Made by a program: the position numbers and the translations under genes | The notes under the pieces: model-generated | The model's database searches: none | What the model was told of the DNA's origin: nothing | Seen by the model: only the letters and a program-made list of their open reading frames with translations | Shown: in pieces, positions 4,178 through 22,570 of the stretch | Numbering within the stretch: the first letter of the stretch is position 1 | Layout: every line of letters starts with the position of its first letter | Source of the DNA: Escherichia phage vB_EcoM-101112UKE3-1 | Strand: one strand, 5' to 3' | DNA length: 64,000 bases | Sequence record: MZ234013.1

Positions 4178-4408
4178 TTAAAAGCTTTCTTCTACTTCAT
4201 CGTCTGAATCTTCTAATTCAGCTCTTTTTCCTGCCAAAGCATCTCTGACTGAGATGTCATCAGTATCTTTTAATTCAGTTTCTTTAACTCTTTTCTTATA
4301 ATAAGCTTCAAGTTCTTCTAAACCTTCTAATGTTTGACAAGAGGCAATTTTACCCATAAATTCATCAATAGAAGCTTCATAAAGAAATTGTTTAAATTCT
4401 AGTAACAT
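4178..4408 (-). CDS. uvsW.1: UvsW.1 (small protein downstream of UvsW)
   Basis: Track ORF begins at a TTG; first in-frame ATG at 4408 with GGAG SD gives a 76 aa acidic protein, matching recalled T4 UvsW.1. Confidence 0.7.
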   Translation of the reverse strand: MLLEFKQFLYEASIDEFMGKIASCQTLEGLEELEAYYKKRVKETELKDTDDISVRDALAGKRAELEDSDDEVEESF

Positions 4409-4433
4409 CTTTTTCTCCAAAGGGCCGAAGCCC

Positions 4434-5945
4434 TTATAAATTAACTGTTTTCATTACGTAATTAAATTTTTCATCTGCGTAGCGCTGAATACGATCAATG
4501 CCGTGTTTTAAAAGATAGTTCAAATGAACGTATTTCTTTTTCGTATTAGCAGATTTTGGCTTAACGCCACAATCATCTATGAGGTCCCAGACGGTTGCTA
4601 TTGTCTTAGAACCATGCTTACGTAATACACGACCGATTGTTTGTAATACAATGATTTTTGATTTAACACCGTGTGCTAAAACAACGTGATGCAGATTTTT
4701 AACTGAAATACCAGTAGAAAATACACCATAACTAGCTACTATAATTATTCCTTTACCGTTTTCAGCTAAGGTTTTCATTATATTGCGGGTTTCGGTATCA
4801 ACTTCCCCTGATACGTAATAAACTTTATCGTATTCATTTTTAATTAAATCGAAAATAGCTTTACCATGCGATACGTGTTTAAACATGACAAAAGCGTTTT
4901 CATCTTTTTGTGCAAGCTTAATAGCTAATTTAGCGATCCATTTATTTCTTTTACTAAGCCCAGTAATAATTTTTATTTCTTCTTGGTAAGTTTTTCCCTT
5001 TAATTTAGTAGTGAACTCATCGGGATAGCGAAGAAAAATACTATTAATTTTTAACTCAGTTACTTGTCCATCTTCCATTAATTTAGAGGTCGTTACTGGC
5101 TTAAATATTTCACCAAACATTCCAACATACTGCATGATATTGGCTTTGCCATCACGTAATGAACCAGACAAACCGAATTTGAACATGCAGTTATTTAAAC
5201 CTGATATGATAGATGAAATACTTTTTCCTGTAGCAAGATGACATTCATCATTCATCATCATTCCAAACTGTGAGAACCATTCTTTCGGTTGTTTTACTAC
5301 AGTTTGCCATGTACCAACAACGACCGGTGCATCATTTTTATATTTATCATCTTTTGATGCTCCACCACCGATTTTCTTTATCATTGCATGACTGAATAAA
5401 CGATAGTCAACAAAGTCATCAGCCATCTGAGTTGTCAGAGCAGTTGTTGGAACAATAATAAGAATTTTGCCTTCATAATTTTCCAAATAATACCGAGCAA
5501 GCAAAGCTTGAATTAAAGATTTACCTGCGGATGTTGGAAGATTAAGAATTCTACGACGATTAACTAATCCTTCGAACACTGCATCTTTTTGATACCAATG
5601 CGGTTCAATTCTTTTATTTCCTGAATAGATTTCTAATTTAGAAAGCCATTCATCAAAATCTTTTCTTGATAATTCTTCTTTTTCGTTAATCTGTGGGTCA
5701 ATCCAGGCTTTATAGCCAAAGTTATCGCAGAACTTTTTAATTTGCCCGACTAAACCGAATGGAAGAAGGCGATTATAATCTAAAAGACGAATTCGTCCAT
5801 CCCAGTGGCCATATCTGTACTTCGGATTAAAACGATACCCATCAGCTTCAAAGCTAAAGAAATCACGGAGTTCATGAAATGTACTTTCTTCACAATCAAT
5901 TCTCACGTGACTAAAATCATAAAAATGTACTTTAATGTCAGTCAT
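4434..5945 (-). CDS. uvsW: UvsW RNA-DNA/DNA helicase (SF2)
   Basis: 503 aa, near-identical to recalled T4 UvsW; helicase motifs (LNLPTSAGKS Walker A, DECH). Confidence 0.9.
   Translation of the reverse strand: MTDIKVHFYDFSHVRIDCEESTFHELRDFFSFEADGYRFNPKYRYGHWDGRIRLLDYNRLLPFGLVGQIKKFCDNFGYKAWIDPQINEKEELSRKDFDEWLSKLEIYSGNKRIEPHWYQKDAVFEGLVNRRRILNLPTSAGKSLIQALLARYYLENYEGKILIIVPTTALTTQMADDFVDYRLFSHAMIKKIGGGASKDDKYKNDAPVVVGTWQTVVKQPKEWFSQFGMMMNDECHLATGKSISSIISGLNNCMFKFGLSGSLRDGKANIMQYVGMFGEIFKPVTTSKLMEDGQVTELKINSIFLRYPDEFTTKLKGKTYQEEIKIITGLSKRNKWIAKLAIKLAQKDENAFVMFKHVSHGKAIFDLIKNEYDKVYYVSGEVDTETRNIMKTLAENGKGIIIVASYGVFSTGISVKNLHHVVLAHGVKSKIIVLQTIGRVLRKHGSKTIATVWDLIDDCGVKPKSANTKKKYVHLNYLLKHGIDRIQRYADEKFNYVMKTVNL

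Positions 5946-14515: not shown

Positions 14516-14516
<1 letters not shown>
14289..14516 (-). CDS. 67: prohead core protein gp67 (acidic C-terminal tail)
   Basis: 75 aa with poly-Asp/Glu tail; synteny. Confidence 0.75.
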
Positions 14517-16141
<1,625 letters not shown>

Positions 16142-16679: not shown

Positions 16680-16687
16680 TATTTATA
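16680..16687 (-). promoter_or_regulatory. late promoter box (TATAAATA) for gene 19; a second box at 16739..16746
   Basis: tatttata at 16680..16687 (GAGG SD follows) and again at 16739..16746. Confidence 0.45.
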
Positions 16688-16772
16688 TCCCTATGTTTAA
16701 CCTAGGGCATATAGAATTAAAGAATTAAGGATATAGTGTATTTATATGGCCTGCCGAAACAGGCCTTTAGAA

Positions 16773-17330
16773 TCATTCTAGTAAATCCCAAAGATCTACG
16801 CTATTTCTTTTTGACTTTTCTCGATTAGATTCCCAAGTGATTATTTCTAAATTTTTTACGCTTGCTATAATTTCCGGCGGAATTAAATTATCAAATCCAT
16901 ATTTGATAGATACTTTATGATCAAGTTGGTAAGCACCTTCTACGCCGCACACTCCTATTTTATCAGCATTCGGCCATTTTGACCAAATTTTTCTTATTTT
17001 AGCTGACTTAGTTATAGAATGAACTCTACTAGCATATAATGCAAACTCTTTTCTTTTACCAGTCCATCGAGGATGTTTATCGCCTCTTTGCCATGGTCTG
17101 CTTATTCCAGATTGAACTTCCGAATTTTTAATAGCAACTTGTTTAATGCTACATTTTCTACATGCATGTGTGGGTGTTCTATTTAAAAGCTGAATGCTTC
17201 TACTAAATTTAATACCACACAAATCACATTTAGCGTCAACCATTTTATTACTATTCTTTGGCATTAATTCTATTGGAACAGATATTGTATCATGGTATGA
17301 TACTTTATATCCCAGAATTGTCGACCACAT
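16773..17330 (-). mobile_element. free-standing HNH homing endonuclease gene inserted between genes 18 and 19
   Basis: Zn-finger-like CDLCG...CRKC plus HNH core (YQLDHKVSIKYG...WESNREKS); track ORF starts at a TTG at 17417 but a GC hairpin lies inside that N-terminus, so first ATG (17330) taken; start uncertain. Confidence 0.65.
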
Positions 17331-17395
17331 TTTTGAATGATTTCTTGGTTTTATTGTAACAAACTTAGAAATAATCACTTGTTTCCTCGAGAATA

Positions 17396-17409
17396 GGGGC
17401 CGAAGCCCC
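17396..17409 (-). other. GC hairpin between gene 18 stop and the HNH gene
   Basis: ggggccgaagcccc; no clear T-tract. Confidence 0.35.
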
Positions 17410-17421
17410 GCAATCAATCAA

Positions 17422-19401
17422 TTAACCTGCAAGACCAGTTAACTCATCGAAATCTGCACCAGTAGCAGTTGCGACGAAATTAAGTTGGATATAATTTATA
17501 CTACGAGCCGGTTGAATGTAGAATGTTGCAACAAACTCATTTCTATCAATTACTGACGGAGTGTTATTTGTTGTATCGCAAACTACACGATATTCATAAA
17601 TTCCACCGAGAGCTTTAATTCCCTGTAAGTATTGGGCAGTTTCTGTGCGGAATGATGAACGAGTAAACGCGTTGTTTAATTCGAACAAACGATATTTTGA
17701 ACTACGTCCGATATTCGTTTTCAACATATTAAACAGACGACGAACGTTAATACGATCAAATGGAGAAGGAACAGAAGTAGCTGTTTTATCACCATACAAT
17801 ACGTAACCATCGCCACCTGTACCAGTTACCGGGTTGATAGCTTCTTGGTATAAACGGTCGCGCTGAGCCTGGCGAGTTTCAATAGCAAGTTTAATAACGT
17901 TAAGAATCTGACCACGATTATAACCAGCTGGAGACATCCAAGTCTGAGATACGTTATCAGTTCTTGCGCATAAACCAGCAATATCAGCTGCTAATGGAAC
18001 CCAACGATTCACATCATTATATTTGTCATACTGATATTTGTAGTTACCATCGATTGCTGCATAGGTTGAACTGATATTAAAGTTATTATCAGTGTATGAA
18101 CCTGCTGCAGTTCTCCAATTGACTAAGTTATCAACAGCACGAGTTACAGGAATTCCAACTACAGTTTCACGCGGAGGAGAGCACAATACTAAGCAATCTT
18201 GGCGAGCATCCCCAATTGAAACGACGTGTTTTTGGACAGTAGATGCTGTTTCTAAAGATTCACCGGCACAAGAACCCGCAATAAACAATTGAACATCAAC
18301 GGATTCACGGTCAGCAAAGAAGTCCCAAGCTTCCATCAAATCTCCTGCTGTTACTTCAGCATTTGATGATAATCCACCAGACAGAGTTAAAATTCCAGAG
18401 AAGCCTTCTGGCCAGTTTTGTGCAGTTGCAAAAATATATTCTGAACCACCTTTTGCGAAAAAGTCATCGATATAGATGTTACTATCGTAAATATCTTTTT
18501 CACCACGCTTAGTTGAAAGAACAACGCTTTGAACAATAGCATCATTACGACGAACTATAATAGCGTACTGTGAATCAGTTTGTGGTCCATATCCAAACAC
18601 TGCTTTAGCAGTAGATGCACGAGTACCACCACCTGGATAAATTGGGAGTAATGCAGAAGCTCCTTTTGCATAGTCAGCTTTAGATACGATTTCAATTTCA
18701 ATTTTATCGCCCAACTCACCTGGATAAAGAGCTACTACTCCTGGAATTCCGTATTTTTCGAGATTTGCTTGAAAGTCAACCGCTGTCATAGCAGCTTCAG
18801 CATTTTCAATTTCAGCTAATAAAATACCAGAATCAGTAATAATTTTTCCAAGAGTTATTACTGCGGCTAAACCAGAGAAAGACGAAGAAATTTCTGCAGT
18901 CCAGTTAGAACCTAGTGTTGGATATTCACCGACTTCTTTCGCTTTAGCGATAATTTTTGCAGTAGGAATATTAATTTTCTTAATTTTTCCATCTGCGTCT
19001 ACTTCAGTAATTTTACCTTCAGTTTCAATATCATCTGAAACATATTTGACCGTGATTTTATCTCCAACCGCATAGTTACTACCTGGGGTAGAAATTGTGT
19101 ATTCAATATTACCAGCAATCGGAGATGAGTTTTTAGCGGTATCTCTATCGACAGCGCGCACAACTCGCAAATCATTTCCATATTGTAAGAAATTCATTGC
19201 AGACATAAAATAGTCAGCAGTTTCAGCTGTAGGTTGACCAAAAGTATTAACTAAATCTACTTCGTTTGTAACCTGTTTAATCTGAAAAGCAGGACCCCAC
19301 TGGAATTTACCGGCCAAAGCTGCTGTACCAGTAGAGTTATTAACCACGGTGCTTTGAACCGTAGTTTCTTTGAGCTCAATGCCCGGAGATAATAAAGTCA
19401 T
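17422..19401 (-). CDS. 18: tail sheath protein gp18
   Basis: 659 aa, same as T4 gp18. Confidence 0.95.
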   Translation of the reverse strand: MTLLSPGIELKETTVQSTVVNNSTGTAALAGKFQWGPAFQIKQVTNEVDLVNTFGQPTAETADYFMSAMNFLQYGNDLRVVRAVDRDTAKNSSPIAGNIEYTISTPGSNYAVGDKITVKYVSDDIETEGKITEVDADGKIKKINIPTAKIIAKAKEVGEYPTLGSNWTAEISSSFSGLAAVITLGKIITDSGILLAEIENAEAAMTAVDFQANLEKYGIPGVVALYPGELGDKIEIEIVSKADYAKGASALLPIYPGGGTRASTAKAVFGYGPQTDSQYAIIVRRNDAIVQSVVLSTKRGEKDIYDSNIYIDDFFAKGGSEYIFATAQNWPEGFSGILTLSGGLSSNAEVTAGDLMEAWDFFADRESVDVQLFIAGSCAGESLETASTVQKHVVSIGDARQDCLVLCSPPRETVVGIPVTRAVDNLVNWRTAAGSYTDNNFNISSTYAAIDGNYKYQYDKYNDVNRWVPLAADIAGLCARTDNVSQTWMSPAGYNRGQILNVIKLAIETRQAQRDRLYQEAINPVTGTGGDGYVLYGDKTATSVPSPFDRINVRRLFNMLKTNIGRSSKYRLFELNNAFTRSSFRTETAQYLQGIKALGGIYEYRVVCDTTNNTPSVIDRNEFVATFYIQPARSINYIQLNFVATATGADFDELTGLAG

Positions 19402-19429: not shown

Positions 19430-22570
<3,141 letters not shown>

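Follow-up and report, generated by a model that had tools for sequence, protein, structure and literature searches.

Free-standing homing endonuclease genes (HEGs) are well known in T-even phages. Hef, SegH of phage U5 and SegF/SegG each make a break at a distance of tens to hundreds of base pairs (bp) from their own position, within a conserved gene next door, with co-conversion of flanking markers and with a carrier allele that holds protective polymorphisms. MobE and the other Mob endonucleases of T4 (mobA-E) are likewise free-standing, occupying an intergenic gap beside a conserved essential T-even gene, pairing an HNH-type nuclease with a separate DNA-binding module and occurring sporadically among relatives. 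For Mob-type enzymes, the target is expected in the neighbouring gene, away from the insertion point (Edgell et al. 2010, PMC2988022). The same review of T4 mobile elements lists no element between genes 18 and 19 (PMC2988022), and the tally of Petrov et al. has a single ‘other HNH’ for T6, its location not given, and zero for RB3 (PMC2993671). Here we describe a gene at that position in Escherichia phage vB_EcoM-101112UKE3-1 (MZ234013.1; the whole stretch analysed, 64,000 nucleotides (nt), is called the window). The original prediction for this DNA had proposed an HNH-type open reading frame (ORF) between the tail sheath and tail tube genes, and such an ORF is indeed present, on the minus strand and flanked by genes 18 and 19. 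We read it as a free-standing HNH HEG, a reading to which we give a probability of about 0.8; the kind of gene is thus an ordinary one for these phages.

The window is a Tequatrovirus (T6-like) segment, and its locus region is 99.0% identical to Escherichia phage vB_EcoM_WL-3 and 98.1% identical to T6. In a three-way alignment, T6 and the window both hold 648 bp where T4 has 8 nt. The empty allele of T4 reads, in order, the TAA of gene 18, TACGGTGC, ATTCTAAAGGCCTGTTTCGGCAGGCC, two TATAAATA boxes and gene 19. The insertion point therefore falls between the gene 18 stop and the native hairpin of gene 18, and the final base of the ORF's TGA stop is the first base held in common with the T4 empty site. 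Since the 648-bp span replaces the 8 nt ahead of the native hairpin, the cassette carries an upstream hairpin of its own. Insertion into the gap after gene 18, as originally predicted, is borne out by this precise empty site. The full T6-type insert is found in 69 of 654 related records and inserts with the same leader in 117-118 Tequatrovirus records, while a query for the empty junction is covered by 533 records, approximately 380 of them at Tequatrovirus-level identity (an estimate from even-step sampling). About a quarter of Tequatrovirus isolates carry the insert. The prediction had named a lack of empty-site alleles as the result that would speak against it; most relatives proved to be empty.

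The insert alleles of Tequatrovirus are mosaic. Besides the T6-type allele (201 amino acids, aa), an RB6-type allele with a 205-aa ORF occupies the same place in RB6, P922, ZCEC14, ADUt, sb1 and sb2, and RB3 also carries it. The two types have an identical leader and identical first 22 nt of the ORF, and their last 210 nt, encoding the nuclease core, are approximately 89% identical, whereas the intervening ~370 nt are unrelated at the DNA level; overall, the proteins are about 50% identical. This pattern points to an apparent swap of the N-terminal and central module on a common nuclease and leader. Ratios of nonsynonymous to synonymous substitution rates (dN/dS) are 0.03-0.11 among T6-type alleles and 0.03-0.17 over both insert alleles, indicating purifying selection.

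A second line of evidence comes from the gene next door. The window and T4 differ at 21 positions in the last 400 nt of gene 18, with 14 of the differences packed into 33 nt (51-83 nt back from the last base of the stop codon) and the remaining 7 spread over the other 367 nt. The dense 33 nt change a single amino acid, T to Q, and the encoded RSINYIxLNFVA is conserved in all T4-like loci examined. All T6-type carriers examined have the same block, and a search with a chimeric query found no T6-type carrier with a T4-type block. The block also recurs at a distance: locus L020, whose gp19 is approximately 34% identical to that of the window, shares ATCCAACTTAATTT with it, while empty relatives of L020 use other codons. 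Between L020 and L025, nucleotide identity is 85-97% over a stretch that starts about 90 nt ahead of the gp18 stop and takes in the entire endonuclease gene, as against 45-82% over gp19 and gp20 (except for one 60-nt window at 95%). In this pair, the gp18 tail and the endonuclease gene have moved laterally together. A precise empty site and a co-conversion signature, two features of free-standing HEGs, are both found at this locus.

Some details of the junction in L020 are worth recording. When L020:140-700 is compared with L104-L108, the L020 insert ends in ACGCTTCTAA, a repeat of the last 10 nt of gene 18 in empty alleles, while the end of its own gene 18 is recoded as GCGTTTTTAA. Unlike the hairpin-plus-Shine-Dalgarno leader of Tequatrovirus, the endonuclease ATG of L020 abuts the gene 18 stop (TAAATG), which suggests possible translational coupling.

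One possible hypothesis for the recoded block is that it marks the site of cleavage. We consider it nearly, though not quite, an even chance that the RSINYIxLNFVA-coding block of gene 18 (the RSINYITLNFVA-coding sequence) is the endonuclease target, in which case the block of the window is possibly a variant, immune form of it.

The protein itself has two conserved parts. The Zn-finger-like motif predicted near its N-terminus is upheld by four cysteines, C51, C54, C73 and C76 (201-aa numbering), which are invariant or nearly so in 30 homologues, and DUF4379, a treble-clef zinc finger, gives weak matches in 11 of 30 family members (best E 8e-4). Towards the C-terminus, Y150, Q151, D153, H154, S157, G161, N176, L177, W182, N185, R186 and K188 are invariant in the same 30 homologues (28-68% identity), and D153, H154, N176 and N185 are invariant again in a 21-sequence alignment of the domain. 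These invariant residues make up the D-H...N...N pattern of HNH enzymes (D-H, an Asn, and an Asn/His ligand), and the nuclease domain is the most conserved portion of the protein. In an AlphaFold (AF2) model with a predicted local distance difference test score (pLDDT) of 89.9 and a predicted template modelling score (pTM) of 0.51, the motif residues fall on a strand (150-154), a second strand (177-181) and a helix (182-187), giving a beta-beta-alpha fold around the metal site. The pTM of 0.51 despite high pLDDT, together with a dip in confidence at residues 81-110, indicates two modules joined by a flexible linker. The N-terminal, beta-rich zinc-ribbon domain is presumed to be a sequence-specific DNA-binding module. 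In the nuclease domain, D153/H154 would provide the general base and N176/N185 would serve in structure and metal binding, and the enzyme is predicted to be catalytically active.

At the same motif, four relatives give sub-threshold HNH_4 matches (E 0.078, 0.0016, 0.021 and 0.1), one of them from a Pfam scan of 30 family members, and the JGI pipeline labels three relatives McrA. We therefore accept a divergent HNH nuclease domain at the level of fold, one that lies outside every curated HNH sequence family. The HNH assignment of the original prediction stands on the invariant residues, the HNH_4 matches and the McrA labels, but not on any curated profile above threshold. Its further claim, that this gene is a third HNH endonuclease unrelated to two others in the DNA, agrees with the family profile having its sole match in the 64-kb window at 16773-17417 and none in either of the other two, and a relation to I-TevIII or MobE was rejected at hhalign probabilities of 0.4% and 0.7%.

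That HNH profiles all stay below threshold, that the last metal-ligand position is N and not H, and that the gene is probably co-transcribed with late structural genes would also suit a catalytically dead remnant, or a zinc-finger protein binding DNA or RNA to regulate the tail gene cluster. We regard this as very improbable, because D-H, N and N are invariant in more than 30 diverse members and lie in the best-conserved part of the protein, and because most relatives lack the gene, as they could not if it regulated essential tail genes. Active H-N-N variants also occur among known HNH enzymes, for example I-HmuI, which counts against a remnant.

A number of observations weigh against a homing endonuclease, or weaken the support for it. 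Pfam yields no HNH match for the window protein, only weak DUF4379, and NCBIfam yields nothing. Sequence and profile searches of the PDB (phmmer included) give no HNH, only zinc-finger or spurious leucine-rich-repeat matches, a Foldseek search with the whole AlphaFold model came back empty, and no curated HNH profile passes its threshold with the window protein or its relatives. We found no published experimental work on the PHROG 5104-type family, which also has no Pfam or NCBIfam model and no solved structure. No promoter dedicated to the endonuclease ORF was identified. The related phage records are non-independent samples. Finally, block and insert can be found apart: the RB6-type carrier sb1 has a T4-type block, read directly; sb3 and YwIITB1 have one as judged by identity to the chimeric query; approximately 137 empty genomes (a sampling estimate) have non-T4-type blocks; and TB004 is empty, yet its carrier-type block is confirmed. 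On account of carriers such as sb1 and empty genomes such as TB004, a perfect association between block and insert state is rejected, and with an imperfect association the block could be donor sequence that hitch-hiked along and does not determine immunity. It may be either a recoded immune target or co-converted donor sequence, and both fit homing.

The family extends well beyond Tequatrovirus. A profile scan of IMG/VR gave 80 loci, and gp18 and/or gp19 flank the family member in the 41 best of them and in 53 overall. Whenever gp18 is on the contig, the family member is immediately downstream of it, in phages whose gp18 is 33-72% identical to that of the window; in L040 the family member is inverted. 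The other 27 loci have no gp18 or gp19 within their flanks and are mostly matches to the nuclease domain only, with a few low-identity matches that reach further N-terminally. Among isolates, 242 records hold one copy per genome, from Tequatrovirus and from phages of Enterobacter, Klebsiella, Salmonella, Serratia, Acinetobacter and Sinorhizobium. In Bp7, STP4-a and Sinorhizobium phiM7, each checked individually, the family member directly follows the sheath gene. The gene downstream of it in phiM7 is not annotated as tail tube, so that the anchor is the end of gp18.

To sample occupancy, sites were seeded on gp19 regardless of insert in three lineages (L020, L011 and L070), and 181 of 192 were empty. 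Within the L020 lineage, the gap between gp18 and gp19 measures 25-114 nt at 75 of 78 sites, and the empty contigs include some with a 42-nt gap and a gp19 90-100% identical to that of the carrier L020. Empty sites number 106 of 114 in the L011 and L070 lineages, where the family carriers are the seeds alone; close empty relatives of these two carriers were not found, the nearest having gp19 just 81% and 76% identical. Such sparse occupancy bears on the idea of a domesticated or accessory nuclease that benefits the phage, either by excluding or degrading co-infecting relatives or satellites or through recombination that amplifies nearby genes. Strong purifying selection and the share of Tequatrovirus isolates that are carriers would agree with a useful gene, and HEG-derived nucleases with defensive or anti-defence roles have been described (PMC10448857, and for SegB in T6, PMC13096335). 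The gene is nevertheless rare in environmental lineages, and its strict fidelity to one site and its movement with the gp18 tail are predictions of homing that a defence gene acting in trans does not require. We consider an accessory role unlikely as the explanation for this gene, although the two roles are not mutually exclusive.

Other nuclease-like genes are found in the same gap, so that the gp18/gp19 site looks like a hotspot for nuclease genes and perhaps for homing-type genes in general. L152:1839-2456 holds a 205-aa ORF with a GIY-YIG-looking N-terminus and no Pfam match at E 0.01. L148:756-2411 (minus strand) holds a 551-aa ORF in the opposite orientation, which is homologous to the zinc-ribbon domain of the family over its first ~100 residues and weakly matches REase_MTES_1575 (PD-(D/E)XK) in the remainder. 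A related 444-aa ORF with helix-turn-helix repeats lies at L163:1046-2380, and L303 has a 1455-nt gap at the site. By such comparisons, the N-terminal zinc-ribbon domain behaves as a module that is site-specific and portable. Some family members are longer (239-362 aa) and occupy the same site at L060:2300-3388, L039:763-1509 and L031:3554-4273; in the first of these, additional repeats that match Pfam DUF7487 separate the zinc ribbon from the HNH core like beads on a string. Such an arrangement suggests DUF7487 to be a DNA-binding repeat of homing endonucleases. In Escherichia phage Bp7 (L190:3769-4350 and 4408-5630), besides the family member after gp18, a further gene annotated as ‘HNH endonuclease’ separates gp19 from gp20, and the portal gene is annotated as two pieces (gp20' and gp20).

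The features of the locus are collected in Table 1. Gene 17, gene 18, the endonuclease ORF, gene 19 and gene 20 are late morphogenesis genes or lie among them, all on the minus strand. The gp18 of the window is 98.5-99.5% identical to the gp18 of T4 and T6, both annotated as tail sheath, and its gp19 has 100% identity with T4 gp19. As the gene belongs to the late morphogenesis cluster, with the terminase gene about 2 kb away, and is just upstream of the portal gene, one might think of an HNH accessory factor of DNA packaging, similar to the terminase-adjacent HNH proteins of HK97-like cos phages. T4-type phages, however, package by a headful mechanism with gp16/gp17 alone. The 2-kb gene 18 also stands between gene 17 and the ORF, which is missing in T4 and most relatives. 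We rejected the packaging idea on gene order and dispensability (empty-site relatives are viable), and hold it to be the most improbable of the alternatives, with hardly any weight left.

Table 1. Coordinates of the endonuclease locus and its neighbours in the window
Feature	Position	Strand	Basis or remark
Gene 17 (terminase)	19433-21265	-	ORF list
Gene 18, tail sheath, 659 aa, directly upstream of the insert	17422-19401	-	ORF list
Recoded block at the 3' end of gene 18, encodes RSINYIQLNFV	17473-17509	-	51-87 nt back from the last base of the stop codon
Gene 18 stop codon	17422-17424	-	
Insert relative to T4, 648 bp, in place of 8 nt TACGGTGC	16774-17421	-	Alignment of window, T4 and T6; junction sequences
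Longest ORF, TTG start, 214 aa	16773-17417	-	ORF list
Cassette-borne hairpin GGGGC-UUCG-GCCCC	17396-17409	-	-11.0 kcal/mol, z -2.2
Shine-Dalgarno sequence GAGGAAA of the endonuclease ORF	17382-17388	-	Sequence
Endonuclease ORF, GTG start, 201 aa plus stop	16773-17378	-	T6ORF160; PHROG 5104
CxxC...CxxC zinc-ribbon (treble-clef-like) core, residues 51-76	17151-17228	-	Cysteine conservation
Divergent HNH (beta-beta-alpha-metal) core YQLDH...NLEIITWESNREK, residues 150-188	16815-16931	-	
Native gene 18 3' hairpin GGCCUGU-UUCG-GCAGGCC	16748-16765	-	-12.8 kcal/mol, z -3.7
First late-promoter box TATAAATA, native to the 18/19 intergenic region	16739-16746	-	Exact match, identical in T4
Second late-promoter box TATAAATA, just upstream of gene 19	16680-16687	-	Exact match, identical in T4
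Gene 19, tail tube, 163 aa	16174-16665	-	ORF list; start at 16665
Gene 20 (portal)	14516-16102	-	ORF list

The start codon had been left uncertain, with the longest ORF running from a TTG; this longer ORF is confirmed, and the start can now be assigned within it. A GAGG lies 6 nt upstream of GTG 17378, and ribosome site and start are kept in all carriers as GAGGAA[A/T]CAAGTG. Across the family the N-terminus is a conserved M/V-I-I-S/T-K, and members with N-terminal extensions have V-I-I-S/D-K at the aligned position. The full-length match to PHROG 5104, a family without functional annotation, begins at residue 14 of the TTG ORF (residues 14-213 against profile positions 1-209 of 228, E 2.5e-82), and a coding sequence of 606 nt is annotated in T6, Ptacy1496 and other records. 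The TTG at 17417 was rejected in favour of the GTG on the profile start, the 606-nt annotations and the family N-termini. These features and the spacing of the GAGG, all read from sequence, place the start of translation at GTG 17378.

A hairpin stands on each side of the endonuclease gene, as predicted, with the coordinates of the downstream one corrected from 16747-16764 to those of Table 1. The cassette-borne hairpin begins 12 nt past the gene 18 stop, is absent in T4 and is conserved in both insert alleles; it likely substitutes for the native 3' hairpin of gene 18. The native hairpin, which none of 200 shuffled sequences equals in stability, is identical in T4, where it lies directly 3' of gene 18, while in the window it comes after the endonuclease gene. 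Both hairpins lack a T-run behind them, and a terminator scan was negative. We therefore rejected the hairpins as canonical intrinsic terminators, leaving two stable UUCG-tetraloop hairpins. Of the predicted insertion into a terminator/promoter gap, the insertion and the promoters hold and the terminators do not. Both late-promoter boxes announced before gene 19 are exact matches to TATAAATA, which occurs 26 times in the window against 10.2 expected. Sequestration of the ribosome site by the leader hairpin was also considered and rejected, as the 101-nt leader folds as an isolated hairpin alone (overall z -0.34).

No TATAAATA lies between gene 18 and the GTG, the nearest upstream box being at 19430-19437. 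Inside the recoded block of gene 18, the minus strand at 17491-17498 reads TATAAATT, a 7/8 match to the T4 late-promoter box located approximately 110 nt upstream of the endonuclease GTG. The carrier-type block here reads GTATAAATTATAT, and the T4-type block (GCATTAACTACAT) has no such match. TATAAATT might serve the endonuclease gene as a late promoter of its own, or might have arisen by chance from AT-rich codons. The spacer between the gene 18 stop and the cassette hairpin (window 17410-17421) varies as well, being TTGATTGATTGC in the window, TTGATTGATTGT in Ptacy1496, TTGATTAT in T6, and TTGATAT or TTGATAA in RB6 and P922; the form in the window looks like a 4-nt TGAT/GATT duplication.

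For a free-standing HEG, these parts would work together as follows. The 648-bp cassette, consisting of a UUCG hairpin, a ribosome-binding site and the 201-aa ORF, is self-contained. Because no TATAAATA intervenes, expression would be late and low-level, through read-through of gene 18 late transcripts past a hairpin that has no U-run. In a mixed infection, the enzyme would nick or cut the insert-less allele of a co-infecting phage, most likely in the gene 18 RSINYIxLNFVA sequence, 50-90 bp upstream of the insertion point. Recombinational repair off the carrier genome would then transfer a copy of the cassette, along with the neighbouring end of gene 18, to the recipient, and the recoding of the block would spare carriers from self-cleavage.

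A broader view, which we hold only tentatively and think somewhat more likely wrong than right, is that a homing lineage has used its zinc-ribbon module to track the RSINYIxLNFVA DNA of the sheath gene throughout the history of the T4 superfamily, with the module shuffled among nucleases and an arms race driven by recoding. Its range would take in coliphages, Acinetobacter and Sinorhizobium phages and uncultured environmental T4-like phages, and the module would be found joined to HNH, to a PD-(D/E)XK-like domain (L148) and in the long DUF7487-repeat versions. Synonymous recoding of the sheath gene would have produced T4-, T6-, RB6- and L086-type blocks that compete within an essential structural gene. 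Since the best-matching family members lie just past gp18 across the T4 superfamily, long-term tracking of the site and recoding of the target are testable. If such tracking is true, the family would offer a new, compact scaffold of zinc ribbon plus HNH with a defined natural target, and a natural system in which to study target-site immunity.

At the level of annotation, the analysis fixes the start codon and supplies a defensible product name, and the homing reading accounts for a local cluster of closely spaced synonymous changes within gene 18 of phages that are otherwise 99% identical. GenBank mostly names family members ‘hypothetical protein’, occasionally HNH or homing endonuclease. Homologues also appear, wrongly, as ‘holin’ or ‘putative head morphogenesis protein’, and as ‘type II restriction endonuclease’, the records with odd names being MW883059, OP168898, MT968995, AP018814, PQ657792, MG010123 and OR584013. 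Insert-bearing T4-like sequence is found under ‘Staphylococcus phage SAJK-IND’ (32 kb) and ‘Pseudomonas phage PsgM02F’ too, and records of this type are probably mislabelled or contaminated.

Compared with the described systems, the endonuclease has an architecture opposite to that of the studied T4 HNH homing enzymes. In the Mob enzymes and I-TevIII the HNH part is N-terminal (MobE, Pfam HNH at 21-44; I-TevIII, HNH_3 at 4-48), whereas here the order is reversed, with a C-terminal HNH core at 150-188 of 201 residues and an N-terminal zinc ribbon. The locus differs from those of the Mob genes as well, being the gap after gene 18, and the gene is so far known from its sequence. Two nicking endonucleases, Gme HNH (PDB 4h9d) and the HNH protein of phage GVE2 (PDB 5h0o), share just 9-18% sequence identity with it. 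They are small stand-alone HNH proteins with CxxC zinc sites within the nuclease domain, while the endonuclease described here has its four-cysteine site outside that domain, in an N-terminal domain of its own, and the two strands of its core are interrupted by inserted helices. Nuclease family and locus also set it apart from Hef, SegH and SegF/SegG, and its cleavage site is predicted from the recoded block of gene 18; in its predicted manner of spread, though, it resembles all of these.

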